A stretch of DNA of 45,928 nt, taken from a virus. Taxonomy: Duplodnaviria; Caudoviricetes. This document shows positions 13,876 to 45,928 of the stretch, piece after piece. The position numbers were made by a program, and so were the translations under genes. Every line of letters starts with the position of its first letter. Positions within the stretch are counted from its first letter, which is position 1. The stretch covers positions 1-45,928 of the IMG/VR virus record IMGVR_UViG_3300048848_000275, one strand, 5' to 3'. The notes under the pieces are model-generated. The model worked only from the letters and a program-made list of their open reading frames with translations. It was not told the origin of the DNA and made no database searches.

Positions 13876-13918
13876 CATGGAGTAATGGATGGGGCTGGAA
13901 CCCCATCCATCGGTATGC

Positions 13919-17286: not shown

Positions 17287-17330
17287 TTTTCACGTTTCGA
17301 CCTAAAACAGTGAAAAGAGGAGTAGTCCGA
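17287..17330 (+). repeat. Left end of island: terminal inverted repeat plus GAGTAGTCCGA motif
   Basis: TTTTCACGTTTCGACCTAAAA (17287-17307) vs reverse complement of 43954-43974 TTTTGACGTATGGAGCTGAAA; GAGTAGTCCGA at 17320-17330. Confidence 0.75.
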
Positions 17331-17364
17331 TGGTCAGGTTTTTCGCATCATTGCTCCGCCGGTA

Positions 17365-23905: not shown

Positions 23906-24072
23906 AGATCCTTTTCATCCAGTTGAACTCTGCCGGCGCGGAGGCGCGGCCGCAAGGAATCTACTATAGGTACTTTATCAAAAACTGGCTCCGGAAATAA
24001 GAATAAGCCGAAACATTGTCGACAAGTGTTTCAGCCTCTCCCACATCGCTAATTCTCGCGTATAAGGAGCAA

Positions 24073-26397
24073 ATGTCGACCAAAGAAACGTTCAGAATCA
24101 GCTCTCATCTAAAGGACATCATCGGGCGCGACCTCGTGACCAACGAGTTCATTGCGATCTTCGAGCTCGTAAAGAACTCCTTCGACGCTGGAGCAACGCG
24201 CGTCGACATCGAATTTGAGCCTTCAGAACGCACGATCGCGATCGTCGACGACGGCAAAGGGATGACTCAGGACGACATCAAGAAGAAGTGGCTGTTCGTC
24301 GCGTTTTCTGAGAAGGCACAGTCGGAGCCAGACTCCTACCGTGACAAGATCAGGTCAGCAGGCCAGTATGCCGGTAGCAAGGGTATCGGCCGTTTCGCCT
24401 GCGACACGCTTGGAGAGAAGCTGTCGCTCTATTCCCGAGTGCGGGGCGAAGCGAAGGTCGAGTTGCTTTCGATCGACTGGACGCAGTTCGAGCAGAGCAG
24501 CCGGAAGGAGTTCAAGGATGTCGCGGTAGAGATCGACCGGGTCGTGTCATTTCCCGAGATCGGAAACTCCAACACGCCGAGCGAGCATGGAACCGTGCTG
24601 CTGATCAGGGATACGCGCCACGAATGGGACGTTGAGCGTATCAAAAGGCTAAGGAGAGACCTTGCGAAGCTCATAGACCCGTTCGGAACTACGACAAACG
24701 TCGCGGTCTCGACTTGGCTTTTGGATGGATCCGACGTCCGGATTAAGGACGTCGACGGGCCGGTCGGAAACCAGATTGCTGATCTCCTCCGGGAAAAGAC
24801 GAGCAGGATCGAGGTTACAATCGAAGGTGGTCGGATTAGTACGCTCCTTTTTGATCGCGGGAGAAAAATCTACGAGGTCAGGGAAAAGTCGCCGTACGAA
24901 GAGCTTGAGGACTGCAAGGTCGAAGGGCAGATCTTCTTCCTCAACCGCTCGGCGAAAAAGACCTTCACGGGACGCATGGGGGTTCGCCCGGTTGAGTTCG
25001 GCAGTGTCTTCCTGTTCCTTAACCGCTTCCGGGTCTCCCCTATCGGCGACGAGCTTGACGACACACTTGGGTTGAACAGACGGAAGCAGCAGGGCACGTC
25101 CCGCTATCTGGGGACCCGTGACATCATTGGTCGCGTCGACGTCACGGCCAGGCCTAAGGTCTTTCGCGAGGTATCAAGTCGCGATGCTGGACTGGTCGAG
25201 GACGCCCGCAGCCGAGCGTTGTACGACGCAATCCTGAAGCATATGATTTTGCGCCTTGAACGATATGTTGTAGGGGTGAACTGGCAGGACTCATTCGATC
25301 AGGACCGCGACACGCCTGAAGGCCTCGAGAACGACAGGTCGCGCGATCGAATCCTTTCGATCATCGGGGGACTAGCTCGCTCCAAGGATTTAGAAGTCAT
25401 ATACTACGACAAGGAGATCGTCAGGATCGCGGACGATCCTGACCAGATCACAGATAGCGCGCTTAAGGCGATGTCTGACTTGGCGGAGCGCCGGGGCGAC
25501 GCGTCGCTCCTCAACCAGATCGAGGACGCGCGGCGACGCATCGAAGAATTGAAATCGTCACGGCTAGAAGCACGCCAGCAGGCCGAACGGGCCGTCGAAG
25601 AGCGGGTTCGCGCTGACGCGATGATAGCCAGGCTTGAACAACAGGCGCGGTTTCTCGGCAGCAGCCGGGACGTAGATGTGGAAAGGGTGCAACTGCTGAT
25701 GCACCAAGCCATAATTCACCTCGGCCATATTCGGTCAGCAATCACTAACGCCGCACATGAAGTCCGAAGCGTCCTTTCCATCGCATCGGCCACAGGAGAA
25801 GTCGACAGCGAGGAAGTCGCCGACCTGCTTGCGACCGTCAGGCAGTCGGCAAGGAGAGCATCGGCTTCCATTGCGGGCGCGCACCTGTCCAGCGACAGGC
25901 TTGGCGCAGTGCTCTCATTCGCGCCTAACATCCGTGTCGATCTTCAGACCGACAAAATGAGCGGCGACCTCCTTCGTTTCCTTGACGAGTATCTCAACGT
26001 ACGTGTCGCAGGGCTTCCCGGAATGCCGAAGGCGGCCCTTGACGCCTCAAACCTAACACTCGAGCGAGAGTTCTCTCCCGTAGACATAGCCGTATTAATC
26101 GACAACCTGATGGATAACGCCAGAAAAGCCAAGGCTACCAAGGTTGACTTCAAGGCCTCGGCTAAAGGCGCGAAAGCGATTACTATCAACGTCAGTGACG
26201 ACGGGCTCGGGATCGATCCCGAGCGGGTAGATGTCACCAAGCTGTTTGAGCGGGGTTACTCTGGCTCGACTACGGGAACCGGACTGGGTCTGTACAGCGT
26301 ACGCCAAATCCTCGCGGAAATGAATGGAAGCGTTGCGCTCGCGGGAGATGGCACCCGAGCAGACTTCGAAATTGTGATTCCAGTGGAGGATGCATGA
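24073..26397 (+). CDS. GHKL/MORC-type ATPase fused to coiled coil and C-terminal histidine kinase
   Basis: N-term ELVKNSFDA, DDGKGM, GSKGIGRF, HGT; long coiled coil; H-box-like LMHQ; C-term NLMDNARKA, VSDDGLGI, LFERGYS, GTGLGL; AAGGAG RBS before ATG 24073. Confidence 0.88.
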   Translation: MSTKETFRISSHLKDIIGRDLVTNEFIAIFELVKNSFDAGATRVDIEFEPSERTIAIVDDGKGMTQDDIKKKWLFVAFSEKAQSEPDSYRDKIRSAGQYAGSKGIGRFACDTLGEKLSLYSRVRGEAKVELLSIDWTQFEQSSRKEFKDVAVEIDRVVSFPEIGNSNTPSEHGTVLLIRDTRHEWDVERIKRLRRDLAKLIDPFGTTTNVAVSTWLLDGSDVRIKDVDGPVGNQIADLLREKTSRIEVTIEGGRISTLLFDRGRKIYEVREKSPYEELEDCKVEGQIFFLNRSAKKTFTGRMGVRPVEFGSVFLFLNRFRVSPIGDELDDTLGLNRRKQQGTSRYLGTRDIIGRVDVTARPKVFREVSSRDAGLVEDARSRALYDAILKHMILRLERYVVGVNWQDSFDQDRDTPEGLENDRSRDRILSIIGGLARSKDLEVIYYDKEIVRIADDPDQITDSALKAMSDLAERRGDASLLNQIEDARRRIEELKSSRLEARQQAERAVEERVRADAMIARLEQQARFLGSSRDVDVERVQLLMHQAIIHLGHIRSAITNAAHEVRSVLSIASATGEVDSEEVADLLATVRQSARRASASIAGAHLSSDRLGAVLSFAPNIRVDLQTDKMSGDLLRFLDEYLNVRVAGLPGMPKAALDASNLTLEREFSPVDIAVLIDNLMDNARKAKATKVDFKASAKGAKAITINVSDDGLGIDPERVDVTKLFERGYSGSTTGTGLGLYSVRQILAEMNGSVALAGDGTRADFEIVIPVEDA

Positions 26398-27338
26398 ACC
26401 TTGATCTAGGCATCCTCTGGATCGAGGATTCGTTCAGCGGCGAAGAAGAATCTAGCCTGAAGCGTCGAGTCTACGAGGCAGGTTTCGTGGCACGGATCCA
26501 CGTTATCCCTAATAGCAGCGATATCGCTGAACTGGCACGGCTCCACAACCTGTACCATCGCTTCGACCTGATCCTTCTCGACTATCGCCTTAAAAACGAG
26601 AACGGGGACGAGCTCGCCCCAACTGTTAGAGCACTGTTTCCCTCGGTCACCATACTCTTCTATTCTGGCAGCGTAGAGGAGGCTGAACTCCGGAAGTTGA
26701 TCGCCGCCAAAGAGGTCGAAGGAGTCTATTGCAGTCACCGGAATCGATTCATCGAACGAACCGGCACGCTCATCGATCAAACAGCTCGGGCCCTTGACCG
26801 GTTGTCCGGCATGCGGGGACTTGCAATGAAGGTCGTCGCTGAATGCGACGACCTGATGAAAAACGCAGTTTTGGGGATGACACTGCGCGAGCCCAAGTGC
26901 GCCGCGAAGGTGGCAGAGATGGATGACGACGTCTTCACATTCTTGAGCGATATGAGAGGCAAGTACGAAGCCGCCGTACCATCGGGCATGCAGGAGCGCT
27001 TCGATACCCGCGCAGTTGATAGCACAAAGCTATTCAAGCACTTTCGGCGCCTGACACAGATAGTCACCGCGAATCCGACGTCGTTTGGACTAGGGGAGGA
27101 TCAGGTGGACCGACTTCGCGAACTTCGGAACATGAATGTCCAATATGACAAGGTGGTCTTGAAGAAGCGCAATATCCTTGGACACGTTACCGAGGTCGAA
27201 AGCAAAGATGGATGGGTTCTACAAGGCAGCGACGAGATCAGCGTCGCCGATTTCGCGGAAATCAGGCGAGGATTTGCGACGCACATCGACGCTATCCGCG
27301 AGATGAGCGATCTTGTTCTGCTGTTGGACCGCAAGTAG
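26394..27338 (+). CDS. Response-regulator receiver protein with C-terminal helical domain carrying RxxxxH (HEPN-like)
   Basis: ILWIEDS, FDLILLDYRL (phospho-acceptor Asp), ILFYSG; C-terminal KKRNILGH; ATGA overlap with the kinase. Confidence 0.8.
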   Translation: MNLDLGILWIEDSFSGEEESSLKRRVYEAGFVARIHVIPNSSDIAELARLHNLYHRFDLILLDYRLKNENGDELAPTVRALFPSVTILFYSGSVEEAELRKLIAAKEVEGVYCSHRNRFIERTGTLIDQTARALDRLSGMRGLAMKVVAECDDLMKNAVLGMTLREPKCAAKVAEMDDDVFTFLSDMRGKYEAAVPSGMQERFDTRAVDSTKLFKHFRRLTQIVTANPTSFGLGEDQVDRLRELRNMNVQYDKVVLKKRNILGHVTEVESKDGWVLQGSDEISVADFAEIRRGFATHIDAIREMSDLVLLLDRK

Positions 27339-28523
27339 GCCGATCAAAGTCTCCCCCAGCGCCTCAGCGAGCAGCGGTGGCACCGCGTTCCCCACCTGTG
27401 TGTAGCGCGGGCAAGCATCCTTGCGGCGAGATCCACCCGTCGTATACGGCCCACGGAACGAGAACCAGTCTGGAAATGACTGCAGCCGTGCGTGTTCACG
27501 AACGGTCATGGAGCGAGGCTCCGAGTAATGTATTAGATCGTCGGGCAATGTGCTGATCGTCGGAGCGATGTCGTTCGGATCCAGTGCAGTGGTGCTCCGT
27601 TTCTTGATACCGAGGCGGGCCCGGTCCTGCGGTCGCAGGCATACGCCGCGCTCGCAGTTGTCGAGGATTTCCTGCATCCGACGAACGGAAGCGTCGCCGT
27701 GGCGAGGCAGCCGCAGATCCTCCGGTTGGCCTCTGCTACCCAGCCGCATTAGCAACTGGTATGGCGTCTTCCCCTTCGCAGCCCTGCTCAAAGCAACAAA
27801 GCCCTTGTGTCCCCATTCCTTGTCTGCACGTAGATCTGACAGGCCCTCAAGGTCCGACAATGCGGCTTTGCTGTCGGTGGTTCCGGGCCCGAGACCGCGT
27901 TTATGAAGGAATGCCCTTCGGGCAACCTTCAGTCGCTGGACTGGATCGATACCAGGAAGCGTGCCCTTAAGAGCTGCGATAAGGACAAAACGCGGCCGAC
28001 GTTGAGGAACTCCCCAATCAGAAGACCTGACGACTTCGGTCCAGCAGTCGTAGCCTAGGCGAACCAATTCACGGACTGCGTAATCGCGGTAGGTGCCGCC
28101 AGCGCGGTGCTTCATCGACTGAAACCCGACTACGTTTTCAAGCAAAACCAGACGGGGCCGTAAAACGTGTACGTATTCTAGGTAAACGTCTACCATCTGG
28201 CTTCGTGGATCGTCAGGACGCCGTAAGCCATTCATGCTAAAGCCCTGGCATGGTGGACCTCCTGCGACAAGATCCACTGATCCTTTGAGTTCGGCAAGTC
28301 TGTCGCGATGGCAACGGAGGAGCTCTTCGGCCTTCCAAGGCTGCTTTTCAAGCCACGAAGGCCACAGATGCCGGTCTCTGTTGCGATCAAGGAGGTTAAG
28401 CTTATACGTCGAGAACGGATCCGCATGCGCTTCCACTCCAAACAAGGTAGAGAACCCCGCATTTCCGAGGCCGAGCGACAGTCCGCCGCATCCGGCGAAA
28501 AGATCAACGCAGTTTGGAATCAT
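27219..28523 (-). CDS. DNA (cytosine-5)-methyltransferase
   Basis: Motif I DLFAGCGG, IV GGPPCQGFS, VI LENVVG, VIII PQRRPR, IX REHARLQSFPD, X QVGNAVPP. Confidence 0.96.
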   Translation of the reverse strand: MIPNCVDLFAGCGGLSLGLGNAGFSTLFGVEAHADPFSTYKLNLLDRNRDRHLWPSWLEKQPWKAEELLRCHRDRLAELKGSVDLVAGGPPCQGFSMNGLRRPDDPRSQMVDVYLEYVHVLRPRLVLLENVVGFQSMKHRAGGTYRDYAVRELVRLGYDCWTEVVRSSDWGVPQRRPRFVLIAALKGTLPGIDPVQRLKVARRAFLHKRGLGPGTTDSKAALSDLEGLSDLRADKEWGHKGFVALSRAAKGKTPYQLLMRLGSRGQPEDLRLPRHGDASVRRMQEILDNCERGVCLRPQDRARLGIKKRSTTALDPNDIAPTISTLPDDLIHYSEPRSMTVREHARLQSFPDWFSFRGPYTTGGSRRKDACPRYTQVGNAVPPLLAEALGETLIGLLAVQQQNKIAHLADSVDVRRKSSPDFREIGDADLVAAL

Positions 28524-28880: not shown

Positions 28881-29837
28881 ATGACAATCGAAGGACCGCA
28901 GATCGAGATTCCTAATTTCAAGATAATGCGAGAGATCGGCAGCGGTGCGAACGGCACCGTCTACGAGGCGCGGGATGCTCTACTTGGTCGACTTGTTGCA
29001 GTAAAGGTCTGGAATGTGCGCGGACGATTGAGAGCACAGTCCGAAACAGCTAAAATCGCAGGTCTGAGCCACCCGCTTGTTGTAACTACGCACTTGTTTG
29101 GGTTGGTGGACGAACATCCCTATGCAGTGATGGAGCTTGTACCGGGGATGTCCGGAAAGCAGTGGGTTCGAAATGCGCCAGCGGTTCAGACCCGAGTGGG
29201 AGTGTGGAAGATGTACGTTCGCGCGCTCCGCCACATCCATAGCACCGGTATCATGCACGGCGACCCTCATCTCGGGAATCTCATTGTCTTCACGGACGAG
29301 AGCGCGGCTTTTATGTCACGCAACTGGCGTGGAGAGCCCTCAGTAGCCATGAAGCTGGCGGACATCGGCACAAGCGAGTTCTGGCAGACGTCTAGCGACT
29401 TCGCAGACCGCGAGGCGCGGCTAATACTCGAGACAGCCACGAGGTTGTTCAAAGCAGAGCGGTTCAACGCGCTGGCGGACGGCCTTGGCGGACTCGGGTT
29501 TGTCGAGATGCTGACCGTGTGCGACTCAATAGTCGAGTGCATCTCAACGCTCAATGGGTTGCCGGATAGCTATGCATACTCTCTTGTAGCAGGATTGCTT
29601 GTCGATATCCTCATGAAGACACCGATGTTCGACTTGGACGAGTTGTATCGACAGGCATCTGAAAGTCCAGTGACTCAGGTCCGTCGTGTCATAACGCGGT
29701 TGAATGGGGCGCTTCTGGGATCTAACGAGCAGTATTGGCACAATGGCAACGAAGAGATCACCGACGAGACGCGGCTTCTCTACTTGAAGTGGCGTGAGGA
29801 ATGGCGCTCTGGGAGACGAATTGGACGCAGGCGGTAG
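28881..29837 (+). CDS. Hanks-type Ser/Thr protein kinase
   Basis: IGSGANGTVY Gly loop, VAVK, VMELV, HGDPHLGNL catalytic loop, LADIG; no transmembrane segment. Confidence 0.85.
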   Translation: MTIEGPQIEIPNFKIMREIGSGANGTVYEARDALLGRLVAVKVWNVRGRLRAQSETAKIAGLSHPLVVTTHLFGLVDEHPYAVMELVPGMSGKQWVRNAPAVQTRVGVWKMYVRALRHIHSTGIMHGDPHLGNLIVFTDESAAFMSRNWRGEPSVAMKLADIGTSEFWQTSSDFADREARLILETATRLFKAERFNALADGLGGLGFVEMLTVCDSIVECISTLNGLPDSYAYSLVAGLLVDILMKTPMFDLDELYRQASESPVTQVRRVITRLNGALLGSNEQYWHNGNEEITDETRLLYLKWREEWRSGRRIGRRR

Positions 29838-31549: not shown

Positions 31550-33442
31550 ATGTCGATAAACGACGCTGAGTCGCTAATATGTGCCGATGGCCTCGCGAAT
31601 AAGGCGCCGAGCTGGAGGCATATCGGGCCTTCGCTCGGAAATGACTTCTACAAAGATCTTACTGAAGTCGCGACGCAGTTGATAACAGATGCCCCCCTTC
31701 GACGCTTCTGGAGTTGGATGATCTCGCCGGGATCAGACGATCGTTCCGAAATCATAGATTTCTTCTCGTATGGTTCCTGGGCTCCGCACGGTCCGCACGT
31801 TGCTGCGATGAAGGTCGCGGCGCAAGTCGCCCGTTACATTGAAATCCATAATAAGAACTACAAAAAAGACTGGAGCCGAAGAGCGCAAGGGGTAATAGCA
31901 AGTTCTTTTGTGTCGTTAGCAAATTTACCTGGCGGAAAGTATCCAATTTTCGACAAAAGTTTACTTATGACCCAAGAGAGCAGCAAGCCGGGTAATCGTT
32001 CTTCTTTAGGTGCACTAGAATGGCCAGAACTAAAAGGCCTCAGGCCAGCGGAAAAAGATGAGGTCGCCCTTGAGCTTGTTGTTCAGGCAGCTCTTGCCAT
32101 TCTTGCAAAAGCAGAGGGGATATTTGCGTTTGGGCAGTCAATTTTATCGACCAATAGGCCTCCAAGGAAAGTTGATAAGGATTGCTGGTGGGCGGTAAAG
32201 AGATATCTGGAGGGAATGACGGGCCATCTTTCCAAAACTGGAAAGCTGTCGCAATCGGTCGTCGTGAGTGAAGTTAATCAGTCTGACGTCTGGGTCGTTG
32301 CCGGCCTTCGACCTGAACTCGTCGAAACCGGTTATCTCAGGGCGTATCAGGTACATGCAATCGGTCGTGCCTGTCTGGGTGCCAGCAGCGACGTCACCGT
32401 CGCAGTGAAGGCGGCTTTCTGCGTCGCGTCGGGTTGGAACAAGGAGCAGATCCAAACCCTTCCCCGAGACCCTTATGCTTTCCGATACGAGGACGCCGCA
32501 GGCATTTGCCAGGAAGCGTTCTTGGTCTCGTTTAAAAATAGAGCTGGGCATTTCGTCAACGCTCTTTTTGAGCGCGGCTTAAAGTTCCTGAAGCTGACGA
32601 AGGACCAAAATATAGCGTTCTGGGAAGAAACAGATCGCGAAATCAATGAAGCCGCCCATCTTCTTGTTCTAGGAGACGCATCCATCATGGATATGATGGA
32701 TCGCTATCAAGTGCTTACAGATGCAATACGCGGTTTTGACTTATTTGGAGATTTCTCCGACAGTTTTTTCGTATGTCTCGGCCAAGAGGAGCTTACCGGC
32801 GCCGAATACAATATCAAACTGTATGGGCTGGATAGTTACTTAGGAAGAGCGGGAGTTACATACCGATCCATAAGACAAAGCTACGTCAACGTAACACGGC
32901 GAGCTACTGGCTCGCTTGCGTCAGCGCGACATCTGACCAACAACGCAGACGTCGGAGTCATCCTAACGCACTACGACGATCCCGTCATTCAAGCTGAGCT
33001 AGATGAAGGTGTCGCCTTCTGGCAAAATTGCATACAGGCTCGTGTCGTTGAGAGTGAGCCGTCGCTATCCATTCATCTGGCTATTCCGGAAGTAGAGCTA
33101 GAGTGGTTTAGAAACCTATCGGTGGCAGCCGGAATTTCGGCTTCTCTCCAAATATCCAGCAGGAATGTCAACTTGTCCGAGCCGGAAATCCTCGAGGTCG
33201 TACCAACTCCTGAATTTTTTCAGGAACTGTATCTCATAGGCCTTAGCATATTTGCGGCCCGCAGCCGTATCGGCAACGATCGATGGCGAGTTCAGGCGAT
33301 ACCCATCCTTGCCTACGTGAAAGCCTTAAAGAGGCATATCCGCGAAAGCGGTCTCGTGGATCGATACGCAGGTGCCGTTAGGATCGCAATGAGAAAATTA
33401 CGGGCAGGAGAGATTGTTCCGCCCGCCGTTCTGATCAGCTAA
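31550..33442 (+). CDS. Tyrosine-recombinase-fold protein with degenerate catalytic motifs
   Basis: SGWNKEQIQTL (Asn where box-I Arg is expected), SFKNRAG, YRSIRQSY, LTNNADVGVILTHY; first gene of the recombinase operon. Confidence 0.6.
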   Translation: MSINDAESLICADGLANKAPSWRHIGPSLGNDFYKDLTEVATQLITDAPLRRFWSWMISPGSDDRSEIIDFFSYGSWAPHGPHVAAMKVAAQVARYIEIHNKNYKKDWSRRAQGVIASSFVSLANLPGGKYPIFDKSLLMTQESSKPGNRSSLGALEWPELKGLRPAEKDEVALELVVQAALAILAKAEGIFAFGQSILSTNRPPRKVDKDCWWAVKRYLEGMTGHLSKTGKLSQSVVVSEVNQSDVWVVAGLRPELVETGYLRAYQVHAIGRACLGASSDVTVAVKAAFCVASGWNKEQIQTLPRDPYAFRYEDAAGICQEAFLVSFKNRAGHFVNALFERGLKFLKLTKDQNIAFWEETDREINEAAHLLVLGDASIMDMMDRYQVLTDAIRGFDLFGDFSDSFFVCLGQEELTGAEYNIKLYGLDSYLGRAGVTYRSIRQSYVNVTRRATGSLASARHLTNNADVGVILTHYDDPVIQAELDEGVAFWQNCIQARVVESEPSLSIHLAIPEVELEWFRNLSVAAGISASLQISSRNVNLSEPEILEVVPTPEFFQELYLIGLSIFAARSRIGNDRWRVQAIPILAYVKALKRHIRESGLVDRYAGAVRIAMRKLRAGEIVPPAVLIS

Positions 33443-33458
33443 ATTAAGAGTCCATATC

Positions 33459-35834
33459 ATGATCGGCAAATCGCAGTACCGAGAAGCGCTTTCAGCGATA
33501 ATTATTCCGGCAAACATTATAGCTACTTCCGATGAGCTTGGGTTGGCGAAAAACGTGAGATGGTTCAACGGAGCGGATAGGGACCTAGCCCACGTCCAAT
33601 GGCACATCCGGACAGCTAATCCTGAGAAGCTACGCAAGGCCGATCAGTATGTGTCGTTCAATGCTGCACTTGATTTCAGACACGGCTGGACCGGCGGCGT
33701 TACGACGTTCCAAGATGCTTTGACGATGCGTGTTGTTTGTGTCGAGCTTCTCAAAGGCAATGGAACGGCGAAGCCTGTAGCGGCCGCCCAGATCGTGAAA
33801 ATCGCAGGATCTCTCGAGTGGTTGATAAGATGGAGAAACGCCGTAGGCATCCACTCAATTCGAGATCTGACTGAACAACATTACAGGCAGTTTGTCACAG
33901 ATGCCAGTACAACGGACATCACAGACTTAATTCCCCTCGTCGAGCGCATCGAGATCCTCGCGGAAGATCCAGACTACAGGCTTCCGCTATATGAGCATGG
34001 CAAAAGATACCGAATGCACTGGGAAACTTTTGCACATACGCTGGGTGTGACACGCTGGAACCTCGGCCAATCTCGGAAATTCCACGAGGCATTTAGACGC
34101 AACATTGCCGGGTTCCTCTGCAAAGGCGATATCGAGCCTGGCGTGGTAGATTTTTACGTCAAACCTACTCAGGGCAGGCCTTCTGTTAAGGCGAGGCCTT
34201 TCTCCAGGGTGGGTGCTTGGGACACATTAGAACGCCTTTCGCTCAGAGGGCGATTAGAGCAAGACTATCTCTAGTTCCAACCGTCGAAGGTGGACGTCAA
34301 GCGGGATAAGTATGATGGCAAGCGCACTAAATCCCTGTTTCCAGCCGACCTTTTAAAGCTTTTTAGGCTGTCGTCCGTCTGGGTGCTCGAGTACGCACCC
34401 TACATTCTAAGATGCTTGCGAGAAAGGCAGCTCATCAACCCGGATGGAAGTAGATTTCTTAACGTGCCACTAATCGCAAGTCTAATGGCGAAAATGGATC
34501 CTCTCAAGCCTGACGGAATGCCGCTTCTAAGTCTTGGCCTCGGGCCATCATTCCCGCTCCACGAAGGTCGCCTTGCTCTTACTACCGCGCTTAAATATCT
34601 GTTTGTAGCCGCCAGTATTCTAATAGGTGGTTTTGCTGGACGCCGTCGCGAAGAAGTTGCCTCTTTGCGAGAGGAGCCGCTTTTTAAACTCAACGGCATT
34701 ACTTACTTTACAATATACATTGAGAAAAGCTTAAGAGACGTCGACGGAGTACCTGTGCCAGCGTTAGTTGAAAAGGCGGTGGCGCTTTTGGAAGAGCTGT
34801 CCGCATTCGCACGAGAATGTCACCAAACTAAATGGCTTTTTCAGTTTAAGGCGGATCTTGCAGACGGCCAGCTACTCGCGGTGAATACGAATTTCGGCAA
34901 TAATCTGGTTGAGTTCGTAACGTTTTGTGGCCTTGAGGCACCCCAAGGGGAACCACTTTGGAAACTCACTTATCATATGTTGCGTAAGGGCTTCGTCATT
35001 AGCTCGTATCACGGAAATATCTGGGGTAGTTTCGATGCGACGAACCGCTCCCTCCGTCACAAAAGCTCTGATCAAAGCCGCCATTATATGGACGATGAGG
35101 AAACCGGTGCCCTTTCCTATCTGCGCAACGAGGTGCTTCGTCTGGCAAGGGTTGAGGTCGAGAACTTGTCGCCTCACGACCAGAAGTATCTTGCGGATGC
35201 GAAGGAAGCCCTGACGGGACACGACAGACGACGAAGACTTTGGAATGAAGGACGGCAAGAGTTTTTTGTCAGCAAGATGATGGAGATTTACGATGGGTCT
35301 GAACGACCCATTGGCAGGGGCGCCGCCGCACTGCTTGGCCAGTTGCAGGATATGGAAGCTAAAGCCTACGCCCGAATACGCATAGCGAGCATCCCTACGA
35401 ATGGGCCCGCGGACGTTCGGCAGGACATTTTGAAAGATCTTCAGACCGCAGCGGCGCACCAATTTCTGGAGCCGGTACCCGGCCTCCCTCTCTACTGCAC
35501 CTTCAAGAAAGGGCAGATTGGACAGTCGCATCTAGCAAATTGTTTGGTGCGACAGGAAGAGGATCGGTCACCTTGGGGTAAGGACACGCGTGTTTCCTCC
35601 GTTGCATGGCCTGCGTACGCATTCTCGGGAGTATTTCCCTGCCTACGTTGTAGTTTTTGCGTTCTCTTTAACTCCAATCAGCAGGACGTCGAGCTCACTA
35701 TAGAAGAGAGCAAGCAGGCGATTTCTAAAGCGGCAACCGCAGGCCTCGCGGCAGACGCTCAGGCATATGTTTCTAATCTCGTTCAACTGATCATCGATGC
35801 CGAGGAGGCGGTCAGTGGCAAGAGTCGTTCCTAG
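33459..35834 (+). pseudogene. Large tyrosine recombinase (~791 aa) interrupted by one in-frame TAG at 34272-34274
   Basis: ORFs 33459-34274 and 34290-35834 share a frame with only TAG between them; C-terminal half has GRRREEV (R), IEK (K), YHMLRK (HxxR), LRH…RHY (H,Y) and a Cys-rich tail (CLRCSFC). Confidence 0.82.
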
Positions 35835-36360
35835 AAAACGTACGAAGAATATACTCCCTGAGCTTAATAAGGTTACGCGAGATCCTATCGTCGCTAAGCG
35901 CTTTCCTACCAGCGAGAAATGGGACGTCGATTTAACGACTGATCAAGTCAAAGCCCTTGGTCCAAAGGATAAGAAAGCCCGCGTTTTCGAGGCGATGTGT
36001 CGAAAGGTCGAAATCCTCGAAGACTGCGCTCGTAACCCCCAATGCTTACTGCGAGAGCCGTCTATCCCGACTAATCGCAAAGGGCTACGTGAGTGGTCCG
36101 ACCCGGCAAGGGGGCTGTGGAGCTGGGTTTGGGTATCACTCGACAGTCCGTCTCATGGAAAAAACGGCGCTGTCATCGATGCATTCTTTGACGCTGTTCG
36201 AGACATAGAGAAAGCCACAGCGAGTAAGCAGTCTGGACTGAAGAGAGAGTTGAATGATCGAGATTTAATTATTCACCGTTATGAAAAACGTCTCGCCGAA
36301 CTACTCCATGAGGTTCTTGAACTACGAATGCAGGTTCACACGAAGAGAGACCGGACATGA
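35797..36360 (+). CDS. Small accessory protein with C-terminal coiled coil (TnpC/Srap/GmtX-like position)
   Basis: 187 aa; LKRELNDRDLIIHRYEKRLAELLHEVLELRMQV; overlaps both neighbouring recombinase genes. Confidence 0.6.
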   Translation: MPRRRSVARVVPRKRTKNILPELNKVTRDPIVAKRFPTSEKWDVDLTTDQVKALGPKDKKARVFEAMCRKVEILEDCARNPQCLLREPSIPTNRKGLREWSDPARGLWSWVWVSLDSPSHGKNGAVIDAFFDAVRDIEKATASKQSGLKRELNDRDLIIHRYEKRLAELLHEVLELRMQVHTKRDRT

Positions 36361-37952
36361 CGGAAACGACATACTCAACTGCCGACTTCCAGCTTACCTT
36401 TGCAGGGAAAGATTTTAGCTGGTCGAAGCAGGTGATGAATGGCCTTCCATTATTGCGATGTCCAAATGGCCTTTTGTTTGAACCTGTATTGGCGTTTTTT
36501 GCCTTTTCTGAGTTAGAGAGCCGGGTTGCAATCAGGTCGATGAGGTTGGAGGCGTACTCCATAAGGCAATGGATGGTTTTTCTTCAAAACAAGGGGTTGT
36601 CGATTTTTGATGCTACCGACAAGCTCATGACTGAATGGAGGACAGTTCTTGGTTGGCCGGATGAACCCTTGTCAATCAGGACTAAGAAAAACAAGAAAGA
36701 TACCGGTACAAAAGTTCGTATCGAACGAAAGCTGCATCATGTTTTTGAATTCTACAGGGTGCTGCCGCAGGCGATGCCGTTCATGGACGGCGGCCGACCT
36801 ACGCCGATAATGGTTGCTCCGAGCAAGGGGACAATAAACTACCCTATTACCTTTGAGTTGGTTTGGAATAGTCGCAAAAAGCAACACACAGCAAGATGGG
36901 CACGCGCCACTGGCATCGCTCTGATACCAAAACCTCCAATCGCTGCTACTGAAAAAGAAGTAAATCGCCTCTATACTTACTTGAGGGGATACGCTTTCCG
37001 CGTACAGAAGCGACTAAAAAATTCACCCGAAGCACTGAAGAAGGCCGAGGTTCTTTCTGACCGGAACTGGCTTATGGCGAAAACCATGGCCGAAGGAGGT
37101 TTGCGATGTGAAGAAGTTAGTATGTTGACCGTCGATCATTTGTCGGAAGCCCTGACTGAGGCCGGAATTACAGAAGAAGTTCTCGATCTCGATCGCTTGG
37201 CGGACGACGACCATCTTAAGAGGAAGATCAAGGCTCGGATATTGTCCCTTCGAGAGGGGAAGGAATACTCATTCGTATCAGTGGCGATAACGGGAAAGGG
37301 AAGGAAGACCCGATACGTACCCTTCCCGCCGCAAACAGTATGTGATTTGTTGGACGTCGGCGTTTGGACCTGTCGAAGAAGGCAGGTGGCTGTCTGGACG
37401 GAGTTCGATAGTGAGTATCGCGCTCCCCCCTATATCTTCCTCTCATATCAGTCAAAAGGTGAGCTCGACGAGGGGTCAATCGGCGATATCATTGGGAAAG
37501 CATTCCGGAATTTAGGTATTAAAAAGAGCGCCCACAAGCTGCGAAGTTTTTTCGCTACAGTGACCGCCGCTGCTCTGCGGCGACAATATTTCGCGCAAAA
37601 TCAGTATCGATTTGATCAAGCCTTAGTTAACAGGGTCATGGATGATCTTGCCAGAGCGCTTGGTCACGCAACGATTGATACCACCGTAAAATTTTACGTC
37701 GACAAGCAACTATTTGCGCATCTCACGAAGCTTGGAACGGCCGAAGCTAAGCTGTTTTCCCGCCTTTGGGACACTGTCGTCATGGGGAGGATGACTATTT
37801 CGCCTAAGCAACAGGAGATACTTCTGGGAATAGTTGAGAGATTTGGGCAGGTCGATGATCAATCATTCTTCACTTTGGCTCAGGAGGCGCTGCTTAATGA
37901 TCAGCGTCTCCGCGCAGAAATAGGCGACAAGCCGGGCCTAAGGCTGGCTTAG
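36357..37952 (+). CDS. Tyrosine recombinase/integrase (intact)
   Basis: DRNWLM…GGLRCEEV (R), ITGKGRKTRYV (K), AHKLRSFFA (HxxR), ALGHATIDTTVKFY (H,Y). Confidence 0.92.
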   Translation: MTETTYSTADFQLTFAGKDFSWSKQVMNGLPLLRCPNGLLFEPVLAFFAFSELESRVAIRSMRLEAYSIRQWMVFLQNKGLSIFDATDKLMTEWRTVLGWPDEPLSIRTKKNKKDTGTKVRIERKLHHVFEFYRVLPQAMPFMDGGRPTPIMVAPSKGTINYPITFELVWNSRKKQHTARWARATGIALIPKPPIAATEKEVNRLYTYLRGYAFRVQKRLKNSPEALKKAEVLSDRNWLMAKTMAEGGLRCEEVSMLTVDHLSEALTEAGITEEVLDLDRLADDDHLKRKIKARILSLREGKEYSFVSVAITGKGRKTRYVPFPPQTVCDLLDVGVWTCRRRQVAVWTEFDSEYRAPPYIFLSYQSKGELDEGSIGDIIGKAFRNLGIKKSAHKLRSFFATVTAAALRRQYFAQNQYRFDQALVNRVMDDLARALGHATIDTTVKFYVDKQLFAHLTKLGTAEAKLFSRLWDTVVMGRMTISPKQQEILLGIVERFGQVDDQSFFTLAQEALLNDQRLRAEIGDKPGLRLA

Positions 37953-38744
37953 CTTCAGAGGTCTGCACTCTATCAAGAGCGCAAGGTTCATCAAGCGCGT
38001 TCGGTACAAACTACCAAATCTTTGACAAACTCTCCTCCGTAACTGAGCTTCCCCGTCTCGGGCTGTCGCGGGGGTAAGTTGCGATTGGCTTCGATGATCT
38101 CAAGCAGTTCGGTTTTGTTTGAGCAAACTTGATACCGCAGTTGCGGCCGTCCGCGCGTAAGCGGTTTTTTCCTCGCACATTGACCAATCTCGATTGGGCT
38201 TCCCGAAAAATGCCGCTACAACATTGATGGCGAGAATGCGCCGACAGCGGTCATTCGGGTTAGCGCAAAACTTCATTTTCCCGCTCGTCGTGATTTGAGG
38301 CCGTCTTTGGAGATAGGCAGACGTTCGCAAGCTCGTTGCGACCTCCGCAGCCCGTATCACACTATGGCGAACGTTTGTCAGGAACGAGCCTCATATCGGC
38401 GGATCTTGCGAGAAACGCCTCAATCACTTTTGGAAGCTGCTGCAGCATCTTTGCTTGCGGCAACCCAAAGCGCGGCTCTGAGCGCGGCTCCGCCGAGGAG
38501 ACGTGCAGCTTCGGCATAGACGGACTTCATGATCATGCCTGCGAATTTGGATATGCCGAGTCGATAGTATGCCTGTGGGGAGAGATTAAAAGTCAAACTC
38601 TTTGCACCAGTCATCGTTAAGCTGGCTTTATTGAACTGCGTGTTAGGGTCGCCATTCATGCGTGTTGGTGTTAATGGAACCAGCGTGCTCGAACGCCCTA
38701 TGTTGGTGACGCGTTGAAGCCACAGACCTAAGAGAGAACTGGCC

Positions 38745-39914
38745 TTGCGCCCACCTTTGACTGATTTTTTTGTAGAGAGCTTTAGAGACCTGCGATCGGT
38801 CGAACTGCCCAATCTTGAGCAGGTAAATTTGATCGTGGGCGGTAACAACAGCGGTAAGACATCCGTGCTAGAGGCAATAGCAATTGCGCTTTCGCCGGTA
38901 GACGTTGTTGACTGGTCTAGCACAGCTCGAAGCAGAGAAGTACGCTCGACCTTCCCTCACGGTGATGCTCTAAATGCGCTCGACGCAATAAAATGGATGT
39001 TCCCCCATGACCCCCAGCGAGGCTTGGACCGGCCTGACCGAATTGCTCTTCACATGCGAGGGGACTGGATCGTTGACAAGCTAGTTGCTCATTGCACTTT
39101 AGTCAGAGGTATCCCGCCCGAGGAACTGTTTAGCAGTACAAGTCGTCGTAGCCAACGCAGCCGCGAGGGCACATTCGATATGGAAGAGACGGGATTGCAT
39201 CTTGAGATTTCTGCCGATTTAAACCGCTCTTCAAAAAACAACTTTGAGCCATCGCTGTTCGATCCTGAGAGTCAGGTCCTTTATAACGATGTTTTTCTTT
39301 GGCCTTCCGTGGGGTTGACGCAAAAACGACGAGCGCCCCCTCGACTAAGGAAAATGTTACTTGGCCCTTACTCGCACAGAAATCAGCCTCTACTTCTGCA
39401 AAGTCTTTCAAGACTAACTGAAATGGGATTGAAAGACCGCTTGATCGGCCTACTCGTAAGTATTGACCCGGATTTGTTGGACTTCGATATCATTACGTCT
39501 GAGCCATTCGGTAAGCCGACGTTGCTGGTCGAACGAAGAAATGCAGGATTTGTGCCGATCAGCGTGCTCGGTGACGGCTTCAGGCGAGCGCTATCTATAG
39601 CCTTGGCCATGGTCGAGGCCCGAGCCGGCGTTCTGCTAATTGACGAGATTGAGACCGCTTTTCATGTGAGCGTACTTGATCGCGTCTTCCCATGGATGAA
39701 CGAAATTGCAAGAGATTTGGACGTTCAAATTTTTGCAACCACACATAGCCTTGAAGCTATACAAGCAATGTCAAACGATAGGGCGTTTAAAGGAAGCCAG
39801 TCGTTGGCTGCTTTCCATCTGAGCTCCGATGGCCCTGCAAGGCGTATGTCGAAGCGATACAGCTTAGACATGTTGCGCCGATTGGTCAGGGACCGTGGGT
39901 TGGATATCAGGTAG
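38745..39914 (+). CDS. ABC-type (AAA_15/AAA_21-like) ATPase
   Basis: VNLIVGGNNSGKTSVLEAI Walker A, LGDGFRR signature, LLIDEIETAFH Walker B/D-loop, FATTHS H-loop. Confidence 0.9.
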   Translation: MRPPLTDFFVESFRDLRSVELPNLEQVNLIVGGNNSGKTSVLEAIAIALSPVDVVDWSSTARSREVRSTFPHGDALNALDAIKWMFPHDPQRGLDRPDRIALHMRGDWIVDKLVAHCTLVRGIPPEELFSSTSRRSQRSREGTFDMEETGLHLEISADLNRSSKNNFEPSLFDPESQVLYNDVFLWPSVGLTQKRRAPPRLRKMLLGPYSHRNQPLLLQSLSRLTEMGLKDRLIGLLVSIDPDLLDFDIITSEPFGKPTLLVERRNAGFVPISVLGDGFRRALSIALAMVEARAGVLLIDEIETAFHVSVLDRVFPWMNEIARDLDVQIFATTHSLEAIQAMSNDRAFKGSQSLAAFHLSSDGPARRMSKRYSLDMLRRLVRDRGLDIR

Positions 39915-39916
39915 TT

Positions 39917-40714
39917 ATGGGAAACTCACTGCTCGTAGTTGAAGGCGTTCATGACGCCACCTTTTTTGGTCTCCTACTTGCTGAGCATGGCTTCACCAAG
40001 GTTGTGGACGTTGGTGATGTGCCGGCCGTTTGGCAGAGACTCATCCCCAGTAAGTTTCCCGTAAACGATCGGCTGGATCACGTCGTTCACTACCCGGATA
40101 TGTATATTCATCCACAGAGAGCTAATAACTCTGTTGCGATCCTTGTCGCACAGGGCCAATCGCTTATCAAAGACGAGCTTAAAGACGCGATTGGTATCCT
40201 GAGATTAGATTTAATCGATAAAATCGCCATCTGCGTTGATGCCGATTTGGATGCTGCGAACGCTTTCACCGAAGTCGTTGCAACCTTTTCTGATGTTAAT
40301 GACTGGGGACTCGAACAAGGAGTTTTAACTGAGGCCCTGAAGTTACCTGACCAGCCAAGCACTTTTTCCAACAGCGCGATAAGCCTTGGAGCTTTCGTAT
40401 TTCCGAATAATGCTTCAGCAGGCGCGTTAGAAACTCTGTTGATTGATCTGGCGAATGAACACTTTCCAGAGATCAGCAAGCGTAGCTCCACCTTCGTAGC
40501 TGAAATAGATGCAGCTCACGACGTGTCAGATAAGCTCATGAAAAAGTTTCGGAAGGGCGGCAATCGGTTAAAAACTCACGCCGCAATAGTAAGTAATTTT
40601 CTTCGTCCTGGTTCAAACTTAGCGGTCGCAATTGAGCAGTGCGGCTGGTTGCCAGGTCACGAACACGATAGCTTGGTTCGAGTACGCGGTTTTGTTGGCG
40701 ACTTCGTACGCTAA
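39917..40714 (+). CDS. TOPRIM-like protein (DUF3226-like), partner of the ABC ATPase
   Basis: LLVVEGVHD, ICVDAD (DxD), FVFPNN..GALETLL; starts 2 nt after the ATPase stop. Confidence 0.75.
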   Translation: MGNSLLVVEGVHDATFFGLLLAEHGFTKVVDVGDVPAVWQRLIPSKFPVNDRLDHVVHYPDMYIHPQRANNSVAILVAQGQSLIKDELKDAIGILRLDLIDKIAICVDADLDAANAFTEVVATFSDVNDWGLEQGVLTEALKLPDQPSTFSNSAISLGAFVFPNNASAGALETLLIDLANEHFPEISKRSSTFVAEIDAAHDVSDKLMKKFRKGGNRLKTHAAIVSNFLRPGSNLAVAIEQCGWLPGHEHDSLVRVRGFVGDFVR

Positions 40715-41158: not shown

Positions 41159-41938
41159 GTGGCGGCTGTGGCTTTTTCTATAGATGAAACGAACCGGGTC
41201 CGGCAACTGGTTGAACTTTCTGCAACAGTTGAGCCGACGGACGACCCTGACAGGTTCGATTTAAATGTCACGTTGCTCCTCCAACCGGACGAAATCGAAG
41301 TTGGAGATTATACGGTATTGGTCGGATTCTCCGAAGCGTTCGTATCGCTCGAAACTTTCGGATGTGAAGCGGACCGCGCTACAAAATTCGGTATGCGTCG
41401 CGTTGCGGAAAGCGGCGTTAGAACACAGTCAACGGAGAAATCAGTTAAGGCGACGGTAAGCAGGCAGGTTGCGCATGAGGCTGTCGTGAAAGGCAAGATA
41501 TCGCTCGTCGATAACGCTCTGGAGCTCGGAGGAAAGGCAAGTGAAACGAGTTCGCAGACAACCGACGTGACACTTACAGTGAAAGAGGAGCATTCAAAAC
41601 TCCATATCCCTGTTGAATCTATAGGTAACGATCGTTGGCTGATCTCGGAGGAAACGGGGAGCAACCTCACGGGTTATTATCTCAGTTACCAGCGGCTTTG
41701 CCACCTCGTGAAAAGACGAGCAGCGTCTAACCGGTTCGGGGCAAGTCTATCGTTTCGGGTTAAGAGGCGGGATATAGAGATACAGGTTGTTGATAACCGG
41801 TCCTATTTAAAGTTGAACAAAACCAAAGAAAAATTACTGGCTATTTTATTGGGTAAATTTTTCGACAGTTCGAAGGCTGAACGAGACAATCAAGCCATAA
41901 CGTTTTCCGAGACGGTGATCGATGATCAAGGACAATGA
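41159..41938 (+). CDS. Hypothetical beta-rich protein with Ser/Thr-rich amphipathic segment
   Basis: 259-aa ORF after an AT-rich upstream region; overlaps the next gene by 17 nt. Confidence 0.7.
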   Translation: MAAVAFSIDETNRVRQLVELSATVEPTDDPDRFDLNVTLLLQPDEIEVGDYTVLVGFSEAFVSLETFGCEADRATKFGMRRVAESGVRTQSTEKSVKATVSRQVAHEAVVKGKISLVDNALELGGKASETSSQTTDVTLTVKEEHSKLHIPVESIGNDRWLISEETGSNLTGYYLSYQRLCHLVKRRAASNRFGASLSFRVKRRDIEIQVVDNRSYLKLNKTKEKLLAILLGKFFDSSKAERDNQAITFSETVIDDQGQ

Positions 41939-43043
41939 TTTTATCGAAATTTGCTCCGATGATACGTTCGGTAGGGCTGTCGAAAGAGTTGCAGTCAACT
42001 CCGGCAGTTTCACAGAACTCGTACACGATTGCGGACTAAATCCGCTCGAGGATTTTCGGTTCGTCAACCTCGACGAAGTTGATTTCTCGGGAGCCGATCT
42101 ACGTGGCTTCGACTTTACGGGCTCGTCGCTGCGGGACACTCGCTGGACTGGTACCAAATTCGACGAAACAACGGTCACGCTCGGTGCAGATCTTACTGGT
42201 TCGGGTTTTGAACGTGAAGTCACCATTGATGAGGTAATTATTCATCCAGATGAAATTCTACGCCGGCATTGGACCGAAGTTGTCATGTGGATGGACGGCA
42301 TACAGCCTGAACAGATAGACACGACGGAAAATCTTGAGAAGGTCTTAGTAACGTTTGTCAGTGCAAAAGATTCATTCATCCGTAGGACGGCACTCCGAAC
42401 GCTTTCACGCTTCATGTCATTCACACAGTTACTCGCTATCCTGAGAACTGCCGTATTTGACAAGGACGACAAACAACTAATTAGTACCGCATTCGATTTG
42501 TTGAGCCAGTTCTTTCCTACTCATCAGCAGGAAGTCGTTAAGTTCACCACTCCTTTTCTGGCCGGGGAGTATGCTGCAGAAGCTGCGTCGTTCCTGGCAA
42601 CGCATTTGCAGTCGCGCTTTGCGGTGCGCTCCCTAATCGAACTTATGTCTCGGAAACCCGAGCGCATTGATCGTCTACGTTTCATATCCGCTTACGTCCG
42701 GAGCAGAGGCGCGGTCTCCATGTTGATTGTAAGGGATCCTATCGAGGGGGATCCGTTTGACTTCGGATCGACGATCGATCCTTTGCGAGTGGCGCTTAGA
42801 AGTAGAGCAATCGCTAGAATGGCGTCAGAAGAGCGCCGAAATTCCCGCATTCAAGGAGAATTTCTTAGTTTCTTCAACGTGCCGCGAGAGGAAGTTGAAT
42901 TTCAGGTTCTGCGTGTCCTTCGTGAGTTGAGCGCATTTGGTTTCAACTGGCAAATTCCCCGCACGGCGGAGATGTTCAGATATCAAGAAGAACGCAGGCG
43001 GGTTGAAGCTAGAGAGGGCAGGTCATACAGGGACTTCTTATAA
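41922..43043 (+). CDS. Pentapeptide-repeat protein with C-terminal helical (HEAT-like) region
   Basis: EDFRF-VNLDE-VDFSG-ADLRG-FDFTG-SSLRD-TRWTG-TKFDE repeats, then helical repeats such as DSFIRRTALRTL. Confidence 0.75.
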   Translation: MIKDNDFIEICSDDTFGRAVERVAVNSGSFTELVHDCGLNPLEDFRFVNLDEVDFSGADLRGFDFTGSSLRDTRWTGTKFDETTVTLGADLTGSGFEREVTIDEVIIHPDEILRRHWTEVVMWMDGIQPEQIDTTENLEKVLVTFVSAKDSFIRRTALRTLSRFMSFTQLLAILRTAVFDKDDKQLISTAFDLLSQFFPTHQQEVVKFTTPFLAGEYAAEAASFLATHLQSRFAVRSLIELMSRKPERIDRLRFISAYVRSRGAVSMLIVRDPIEGDPFDFGSTIDPLRVALRSRAIARMASEERRNSRIQGEFLSFFNVPREEVEFQVLRVLRELSAFGFNWQIPRTAEMFRYQEERRRVEAREGRSYRDFL

Positions 43044-43867: not shown

Positions 43868-43980
43868 ACTCTTTAAAGAGTAGTCCGAACCATTCCGCAA
43901 AAATCCGCAGTACACTGAAATTATTGAGAGTTTTGCAACTTCTCGACTACTCTTTTCAGCTCCATACGTCAAAACGCGAG
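43868..43980 (-). repeat. Right end of island: palindrome, two GAGTAGTC motifs, terminal inverted repeat and 6-nt footprint
   Basis: ACTCTTTAAAGAGT palindrome 43868-43881; GAGTAGTCCGA 43878-43888; TCGACTACTCTTTTCA 43943-43958; IR 43954-43974; CGCGAG 43975-43980. Confidence 0.75.
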
Positions 43981-45643
43981 GCGCACGGGGCATTGGCTGA
44001 ACGGCAGGCTGGGAGGCACGACCCTTGCCGACGCGATCGCGGCAATCCTCTCCGATCACGGCTTCGACGACTTCGACGTGTCCGGCGTGACCGGCGATCT
44101 GACCGGCTATGTGCAGGCCGACGTCACCCCGGCGCGCTCGCTGCTGGAGCCTCTGTTCAGCGTGTTTCAGATCGACGTCAGCGAGGATGCCGGACGCTTG
44201 CGGTTCCGCTCACGGCAGGGTGCAAGCCTTGCTGCGCGCGAGATCGGGATCGTGGCGGAGGTGGAGGGCGAACCGCTGTGGTCGGAAAGCCGGGGACACG
44301 ACAGCGATTTTCCGGCGGAAGCGGTGCTCGGCTTCTACAATCCGGTTCTGGACTACGAGCAGGCGAGCGCACGGTCGCGCCGCGCTACGGCCGAAAGCGA
44401 GCGGGTGGCAAGCTACGACCTGCCGGCGACGCTGTGCGAGGAGGCGGCGCTCGGGGCGGTGGAATCGGTGCTGCGGGCGCAGCGTGTGGCACGGCGCTCG
44501 ATCTCCTTCACACTGCCGCCACAGGATCTGGCGCTTGAGCCTGGCGATGCGGTGCACCTTACCGATGGCCCCGACGGTATGTTCGTCGTCCAGCGGGTCG
44601 AGGACGGGGCGGTGCGGCGGATCGAGGCAGAGAGCCATGCGCCGCTTCCGCCTGGCCGGTATGACGCGGTGACGACGCGGCGCGACAGCGGGCGTTCGGC
44701 GAGCGACGCCTTTGCGCCGGTCCTCCATTTCCTCGACCTGCCGCACCTGACCTCCTCTGATGATGAAGGGTTTGCGGCGGTGGCAGCCTATTGCAGGCCC
44801 TGGCGGCGGATCGCCGTTTCGTCCTCGGCAACGACCGATGGATATCGCAGGCGGGTGATGGTCGATCGCCCAGCAAGGCTCGGCTTGCTGGTTTCGGCGC
44901 TCGATCCCGGTGTAACGGGACGGTTCGACCGCTCAAAGGTGCTCGATCTCGACCTTTATTTCGGCGGTCTCTCGTCGGCGCAGACGCTGGCGGTGTTGAG
45001 CGGCGACAACCGGCTAGCCATCCGCGCGTCAAACGGCATCTGGGAAATCGTCGGGTTTGCCGAGGCGCAGGAAATCGCGGCGGGGCGATGGCGGCTGTCC
45101 GGATTGCTGCGGGGACTGGCGGGAACCGAGGATGCGATGGCGGCCGGGAGCGCTGTCGGTGGGGCCTGCGTGGTGCTGGACGATGCCGTGAAGCCGCTCG
45201 GGCTGACCGGTGACGAGCAGGGACGGAGGCTGAATTTCCTGGCCGAAAGCCTGGGCGCCGTCGGAGGCCGATCCGGACCGCATGTGTTTGCCGGTGGAGA
45301 AAGGGCGCAGACGCCGCTTTCGCCGGTGCATATCCGCGGCGTCCGGTTGGCCGATGGCGCTGCCCAGTTCCACTGGATCCGGCGCGGGCGCGTCGATGCC
45401 GACGGCTGGGACGGGCGCGATATTCCGCGAGACGAGCCGGACGAAGGCTACCGCGTCGAGATCCTCGGGACCAGTGGCGTCGTGGTGCGGCGGGTGGATG
45501 TCGAGGTTCCGCTGTTCCTTTATCCGGCGAGCGACGAGCTTGCCGATTTTGGCTCTCAGCAGCCGAGCCTCACCCTGCGCATCCGCCAGATCGGGCAAGC
45601 CGTGCCGCTGGGCATTGCGGCGCTCGCGACGATCCACTTTTGA
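43981..45643 (+). pseudogene. Megatron (RcGTA g15-like), 3' part
   Basis: From 43982 reads RTGHWLNGRLGGTTLADAIAAIL…, in frame with ORF 44078-45643 (LEPGDAV, FLDLP, WEIVGFAEA, LSGLLRG..GTE, WIRRGRVDADGW). Confidence 0.93.
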
Positions 45644-45706
45644 CGGCCCGGTTTGGGTGGCAAGTTTGGATGCCAAGTTCTGACAATTTCGTGATGGGAG
45701 ACAGCT

Positions 45707-45928
45707 ATGGACGGGACAAAAGCCTGGTATCAATCGAAGACCATCTGGGGCGCGCTGATTGCCGTTGCAGCCCCGCTTGCGCATGCGGCGGGACTGGAGC
45801 TTAACGCTGAAACGCAAGGAGAGCTTACCGACATCGCGGTCACCTTTGCCGGTGCTATCGGAGGGTTGCTGGCGCTCTATGGGCGTATCGTCGCGAGCGC
45901 GCCGATCCGTCCGACGGGCAAGGGATGA
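45707..45928 (+). CDS. Small two-helix membrane protein, holin-like
   Basis: KAWYQSKTIWGALIA…GGLLALYGRI; GGGAG RBS; directly after the tail genes. Confidence 0.6.
   Translation: MDGTKAWYQSKTIWGALIAVAAPLAHAAGLELNAETQGELTDIAVTFAGAIGGLLALYGRIVASAPIRPTGKG

Follow-up and report, generated by a model that had tools for sequence, protein, structure and literature searches.

The 45,928-nucleotide sequence of IMG/VR record IMGVR_UViG_3300048848_000275, hereafter the window, carries at positions 31550 to 37952 four tightly coupled genes that are probably the recombination engine of the 26,688-bp island in which they lie. The module probably represents a reordered alphaproteobacterial sister lineage of SEs, or strand-biased circularizing integrative elements, likely moving via a circular intermediate. 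Its genes encode, in order, a protein like the tyrosine-recombinase-fold protein Tfp of SEs (gene 1), a large IntB-like recombinase (gene 2), a small helper (gene 3) and an IntA-like recombinase (gene 4).

An island with mapped ends and an empty site

The island occupies positions 17287-43974 and interrupts the host gene for the megatron (baseplate) protein of a gene transfer agent (GTA), with six foreign bases on its right side. The 5' part of this gene lies at 15152..17286 on the plus strand (NF048004 positions 1-745, 1163 bits) and the 3' part at 43981..45643 on the same strand (NF048004 positions 747-1298). An empty site is present in the independent plant-metagenome run X2, where one contig passes from 17286 straight into the sequence of 43981 onward; the contig is a ~96% identical relative, with 11 differences in 275 nt, and the junction was also seen from the right side. 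Because this contig joins 17286 directly to 43981, the insertion comprises 26,688 bp plus six foreign bases. The left junction ends in a target-derived hexamer (17281..17286, plus strand, last base G), which is found in the X2 empty site, while the footprint of six foreign bases at the right junction (43975..43980, plus strand) is missing from it. Judged from this single locus, the G of 17286 and the C of 43975 may each be part of either the element or the flank.

Imperfect inverted repeats terminate the island at 17286..17330 (plus strand) and 43944..43975 (minus strand). When the right end is reverse-complemented, it agrees with the left 23 nt at 17 positions; no reverse-strand match elsewhere in the window is as good (the runner-up has 15). 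An inner motif, AAAGAG..AGTAGTC, stands in the left repeat at 17318 and again at 43876 and 43954, and is possibly a second binding site. The GC content is 50-55% in the island and 64-67% in the flanks.

The four genes of the module

All four frames are on the plus strand, with gaps of +16, -38 and -4 nt, and the module lies 14,263 nt from the left and 6,022 nt from the right end of the island. The initial annotation, made from the window sequence alone, had proposed this gene order and coupling, an internal position 14 kb and 6 kb from the ends, terminal inverted repeats with a 6-bp footprint, and an island free of relaxase, conjugation and phage genes. These proposals stood: each frame was confirmed at its place, and no relaxase, conjugation or phage family, nor any other integrase, was found among the island open reading frames (ORFs) scanned with Pfam (29 of 145 listed) and NCBIfam (28). 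Among the module genes, both databases recognize gene 4 only, and weakly.

Gene 1 (31550..33442, plus strand, 630 aa) was identified as Tfp-like by profile, motif and structure-model comparisons. Asn297 replaces the first catalytic Arg and the His of the HxxR motif is missing, as the initial annotation had claimed in calling the protein devoid of the catalytic Arg/His. However, N297, K329, R442 and Y475 are invariant in 70 of 70 long aligned relatives, so that the Tyr, the Lys and the second Arg are conserved; given its invariant Tyr, gene 1 is not simply non-catalytic. Its profile weakly matches integrase 3NKH in the PDB (E 0.078), with R442, a G-H motif and Y475 falling on the catalytic box of that enzyme. 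In the ESM Atlas, the gene 1 model lies near phage-integrase clusters (TM 0.58-0.61 by target), and the AlphaFold model has a pLDDT of 85.5.

Gene 2 (33459..35834, plus strand, 791 codons) was assigned by profile and motif alignment as the IntB-like large recombinase. R396, R509, H534 and Y543 are present in 11 of 11 sequences and H506 in 10 of them. The window copy has one in-frame TAG, at codon 272. Of the nine non-self homologs, five align through this codon unbroken at 40-62% identity, among them the nearest one of full length (795 aa, 58% identity); of the remaining four, three are fragments of the C-terminal part and one is too divergent to be informative. These five rule out a conserved split or read-through at codon 272, and since the closest full-length homolog and the four others align across it, the stop is a lesion. 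A sequencing slip is unlikely, as a 27.7-kb contig of run X1, which is possibly the source sample, is identical at this place. With its recombinase gene 2 broken, the window copy is likely stuck and would need gene 2 function from another source to move. In three of the nine non-self homologs (P0146, P0150 and P0152) gene 2 also appears truncated or frameshifted, suggesting that inactivation of the element via gene 2 may be common.

Gene 3 (35797..36360, plus strand) is 187 aa as annotated and was taken as the small helper from its position, size and relatives. The relatives are ~150 aa with a C-terminal heptad-like stretch; as their alignment begins only at about residue 36-42, translation probably starts further downstream than annotated. 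Its size and place suggest a role like that of Srap, GinD or TnpC, and it matches no known helper among the 18 reference proteins introduced below. Gene 4 (36357..37952, plus strand, 531 aa), identified as IntA-like by motif alignment and by profile comparison with hhalign, retains a full catalytic set, R250-K314-H393-R396-H437-Y447, invariant in 19 of 19 sequences.

Relatives and hosts

A tblastn search with four queries found the module in two plasmids, Azospirillum argentinense Az39 p1 (locus L001) and a Rhodovastum plasmid (L002), out of 72,556 plasmid records. In Az39 the module is intact and lies at about 899,000-905,400 of NZ_CP007794.1. Six further loci came from one metagenome scan, giving eight in total, with 23-35% identity to the window module. 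The module is complete in six of the eight, and the order 1-2-3-4 (Tfp-like, IntB-like, helper, IntA-like) is kept in all six; the other two loci stop after adjacent genes 1 and 2. The IntA-like gene therefore comes last in the window, as had been noted, and in every complete relative. The Agrobacterium tumefaciens locus tags G6L35_05995 and _05980 are consistent with the same order. Scans of viral contig sets found no relatives. Pattern scans for gene 4 in species genomes also gave no match, the patterns being narrow enough that this is not evidence of absence.

Among 1.84 billion sequences, the gene 1 family has 104 representatives at E<=0.001 and 80 at 1e-30, which amounts to ~100 clusters at the 50% identity level; each of these counts takes in fragments. 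Thirty gene 1 clusters were looked up and an organism was named for 10, all of them Alphaproteobacteria (Agrobacterium, Rhizobium, Neorhizobium, Pseudorhizobium, Sinorhizobium and Sphingobium), in agreement with the host class originally proposed; the remaining 20 clusters may include hosts of other groups.

In the Rhodovastum plasmid (L002:24488-29166), four genes stand between gene 3 and gene 4, coding for a RepB-primase, an AAA ATPase and two hypothetical proteins; this insert is possibly a replication module within the recombination operon. Another integrase gene is found further on, at 32577. On Az39 p1, no convincing pair of ends emerged when motifs were searched for, and a 12-bp inverted repeat beside tlyA was rejected as an end since four of four related plasmids share the left sequence. 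The segment downstream of tlyA (L001:14881-15552) is partly common to other Azospirillum strains; we take it to be a Cas5-like fragment. A convergent gene follows gene 4 in two metagenomic loci (L011:7099-7791 and L012:7376-8029, both on the minus strand) and may encode a KfrA-type DNA-binding coiled-coil protein.

Junctions across loci

In three relatives (L010, L013 and L014) the interruption of a host gene marks one end of the element; the window is the only locus with both ends mapped. At all five junctions, counting the two of the window, the sequence (A/G)AAAC, read from inside outward, lies 0 or 6 bp from the break. Three of them (window right, L013 and L014) carry a foreign hexamer, with C as its first base in each. 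In L013, ~60 nt past gene 4, GAAA is followed by the foreign hexamer and then by the 3' part of a host gene, which we take to be recQ-like from its motif VSQWGHDFRPEY. In L014, upstream of gene 1, AAAA is followed by a foreign hexamer and then by the recQ-like gene from the same base as in L013. The two elements, 27-30% identical, thus entered at one base in opposite orientations (L013, 16304-16320; L014, 9864-9845 on the minus strand). The hexamer in L014 also makes an in-frame ATG before the 3' half of the recQ-like gene. In L010 (9100-9602), the end upstream of gene 1 abuts, with no foreign bases, the 3' part of what is presumably a cytosine methyltransferase (dcm-like) gene.

Relative to the operon, the footprint is downstream in the window and L013 and upstream in L014, while the upstream end of L010 has none; relative to the host gene, it stands before the 3' part in three of three. 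One reading of these junctions is that the orientation may be set by a G:C pair of the target; another is that the module is inverted in L014. The internal place of the module holds for the window but is not a family trait, the end lying ~60 nt behind it in L013 and ~70 nt ahead of it in L014.

Comparison with known elements

The 18 reference proteins came from two SEs of pSEA1, the module of pHNAH8I-1 and one Escherichia coli GInt island. The pSEA1 Tfp and Srap protein ids agree with Additional file 8 of PMC10214605, and the GInt is listed in Additional file 10 of the same paper. The four-gene module of pHNAH8I-1 was counted as SE-type from its order and size. At E<0.05 within this set, gene 2 matched three of three IntB proteins and gene 4 two of three IntA proteins, and gene 1 matched one of three Tfp proteins (E 2.4e-8), sharing the G-x-N at the replaced first Arg, the R and the Y; gene 3 matched none of three Srap proteins. 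In profile-profile comparison (hhalign), gene 4 and IntA were paired at P97 over 328 columns and gene 2 and IntB at P91. In a quick tree, genes 2 and 4 each form their own well-supported clade, that of gene 4 next to IntA at 86.

SEs are defined by intA-tfp-intB-srap at the left end (PMC9345347, PMC10214605). They have imperfect terminal inverted repeats of 13-19 bp and leave a 6-bp footprint downstream of the operon, with the target hexamer at the other end (PMC10214605); they form a strand-biased circle, leave no empty donor site and are described mainly from gammaproteobacterial hosts (PMC9345347, PMC10214605). According to the survey of PMC10214605, 1221 alphaproteobacterial genomes held no Tfp or Srap by PSI-BLAST and no ginC-ginD blocks. 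Like SEs, the island combines two catalytically complete recombinases, one ordinary and one large, with a degenerate recombinase-fold protein and a small helper in a tightly coupled operon, and has imperfect terminal inverted repeats, a 6-bp footprint, intragenic targets and no transfer genes found. Unlike SEs, the order is tfp-intB-srap-intA, the module can lie at either end or internally, the IntA-like gene is separable (L002), the hosts are Alphaproteobacteria and one of three footprints is upstream of the operon. The SE relationship proposed in the initial annotation is borne out in the four gene types, the IntA-like gene last, the repeats, the footprint and the alphaproteobacterial hosts, with faint gene-for-gene matches; the L014 junction does not fit strict SE polarity relative to the operon.

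A second close precedent, the GInts, had been missed. In these elements ginABCD, encoding two integrases, a degenerate one and a small protein, stand at the 5' end of islands flanked by imperfect direct repeats of 10-17 nt; GInts use 6-nt staggered cuts with variant attI, and distant members share a target gene (PMC5385486). One alphaproteobacterial GInt, Mpop_3234, is listed in Table S3 of that paper. The present family resembles GInts in its three recombinase-fold genes with a small gene, in the missing first Arg (also absent from GinC), in its defense cargo, in the proposed 6-nt stagger and in a target gene common to distant members. It differs in gene order and in having inverted rather than direct repeats, a flanking direct repeat of the GInt type being absent at the window junctions. 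No homology to GinA-D was detected at E<0.05 (hhalign P<3) with the one E. coli GInt compared.

Gamma-Mobile-Trio (GMT) islands, which had been put forward alongside SEs, are not a close model. They carry gmtY-gmtZ-gmtX at the 5' border and the inverted repeat is that of the target (bioRxiv 10.1101/2023.03.28.534373); the preprint also gives Gram-positive hosts, in addition to the Gammaproteobacteria named in the initial annotation. GMTs are likewise multi-recombinase islands with defense cargo and a circular intermediate, which is only proposed here. In contrast to the present island, they have three genes at the border and the inverted repeat in the target rather than in the island; none was seen by eye around the X2 empty site. 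No GMT model was among the NCBIfam matches at E<=1, and PF13009 had no match in the window, the control genomes equally giving none. A GmtZ cluster is a weak feature neighbor of gene 1 in the ESM Atlas (0.93), which is a lead only.

According to PMC10214605, Tn554 (tnpABC) likewise pairs an ordinary recombinase with a large one, adds a small helper and leaves a 6-bp footprint; it has no Tfp counterpart. RIT elements have three catalytic recombinases of 315-410 aa and a 34-bp inverted repeat, whereas the proteins here are of 630, 791 and 531 aa and accompany a fourth gene. The family probably works like SEs or GInts, yet is a member of neither as defined. This gene order or family is not described in the literature searched, a search whose coverage leaves out most subscription journals.

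Proposed mechanism and alternatives

In the mechanism that we propose, genes 2 and 4 would make 6-bp staggered cuts at both ends, as suggested by the junctions and by the SE and GInt experiments, while gene 1 would act as their recombinase-fold partner and gene 3 would assist. Joining of the ends would then give a circle with a 6-bp spacer taken from one junction. Such a circle may enter a new site needing little homology, a single G:C pair beside the terminal T-run, with the target hexamer retained at one junction and the spacer left at the other. In the SE and GInt papers, circles formed and the core genes were required (PMC10214605, PMC5385486). As none of the genes identified is a transfer gene, the element would rely on plasmids, chromids or transduction for its spread.

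Several points weigh against a mobile sister lineage of SEs. No circle, excision or transposition was observed, and no circle junction was found among the loose ends listed or the contigs of the three runs. The homology to SE proteins is faint and local, and gene 3 matches nothing. Gene 1 has no match to two of the three Tfp proteins and does not reach significance against Tfp in profile-profile comparison (P 0.26). Besides IntA, gene 4 matches an unrelated integrase (E 6e-5). The quick tree came with long-branch warnings, and the ends are not resolved in L001, L002, L011, L012 and L015.

An SE-like and a GInt-like route are about equally likely, and in its strict form each is a tentative alternative. 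In the first, the elements would use the true SE mechanism, a strict top-strand copy-out with no empty donor site, with the genes merely shuffled and L014 an inverted module. The gene-for-gene match to SEs rather than to the GInt tested and the footprint downstream of the operon in the window and L013, as in SEs, agree with such a mechanism. Against it stand the foreign hexamer upstream of gene 1 in L014, the definition of SEs by intA-tfp-intB-srap at the left end and the report of no alphaproteobacterial Tfp or Srap by PSI-BLAST (PMC10214605), and we regard it as possible but on the unlikely side. We give no greater weight to a cut-out of the GInt/Tn916 type, in which both strands would be exchanged, a heteroduplex spacer resolved either way and the empty site restored. 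It would account for a foreign hexamer at either end of the operon and is in keeping with the 6-nt staggered cuts and variant attI of GInts and with distant GInts sharing a target (PMC5385486), like L013 and L014 in the recQ-like gene at 27-30% identity. However, none of the proteins matches GinA-D of the one GInt tested, the order is not ginABCD and the end repeats are inverted, not direct.

Somewhat less likely still, the family may be an independent, third lineage of recombinase transposons with four proteins. In such a lineage the polarity would be set by the target and not by the element, one G:C pair within a conserved codon of the host gene would complete whichever end lacks it, and gene 1 would contribute its invariant Tyr to a composite active site. 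If the target sets polarity, the G:C pair could complete either end, and same-base landing in either orientation would therefore follow. Such a lineage might also capture cargo on both sides, because its engine would work from the middle or from either end.

It is very improbable that the module is a passenger on an island moved by another integrase or a prophage: the module is internal in the window, the record is classed as a provirus and gene 2 is broken, but the scanned island ORFs include neither another integrase nor a phage gene, the provirus class most likely comes from the surrounding GTA cluster, viral-contig scans gave no relative, and in L010, L013 and L014 the module is only 60-410 nt away from an end with the shared motif.

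Cargo and neighboring sequences

The island cargo appears to be mostly defense-like, with predicted anti-phage functions, based on Pfam, NCBIfam and a PADLOC scan of 16 ORFs. To the left of the module are a PD-T7-1-like candidate anti-phage protein (22703..23905, minus strand; PADLOC E 3e-95), a group at 24016..28523 comprising an HATPase/restriction-enzyme-like protein of 793 aa, a receiver-domain protein and a C5 cytosine methyltransferase on the minus strand (Pfam, NCBIfam, PADLOC), and a PD-T4-6-like Ser/Thr kinase (28881..29837, plus strand; Pfam, PADLOC). To its right are an AAA ATPase and DUF3226 pair resembling the candidate defense system PDC-M38 A/B (38745..40714, plus strand; Pfam, PADLOC) and a pentapeptide-repeat protein (41922..43043, plus strand; Pfam).

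The single flanking gene scanned is the GTA megatron gene. Most likely, the flanks (window 1-17286 and 43981-45928) are a GTA cluster, and the classification of the source record as a provirus reflects the GTA genes around the island. The split of the baseplate gene has likely disabled particle formation.

Immediately inside the left end, at 17341-17420, is a hairpin-like inverted repeat (GTCAGACCGATCCG ... CGGATCGGTCTGAC). Behind gene 4, ~100 nt (38156-38257) recur at 85-90% identity in several unrelated contigs of X1 and X2, one of the contigs sharing this segment being at high depth; it is possibly a small repeated element or a conserved site. Short pieces in RNA run X3 were rejected as evidence of expression, and the small shares in X2 and X3 are uninformative on habitat.

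Significance

The survey of PMC10214605 concluded that Alphaproteobacteria lack synteny blocks of SEs and GInts, and proposed that movement is host-dependent. With ~100 clusters and a third gene order, the present family argues that detection accounts for part of this gap, and that neither gene order nor a terminal position is essential to such machinery. The family supplies natural variants, with modules that are permuted, split, placed at either end or inserted in two orientations at one base, and these bear on what such elements require three recombinase-fold proteins for. A plant-beneficial Azospirillum strain has the module intact, and in the window the island carries candidate anti-phage genes and breaks a baseplate gene of the host GTA.

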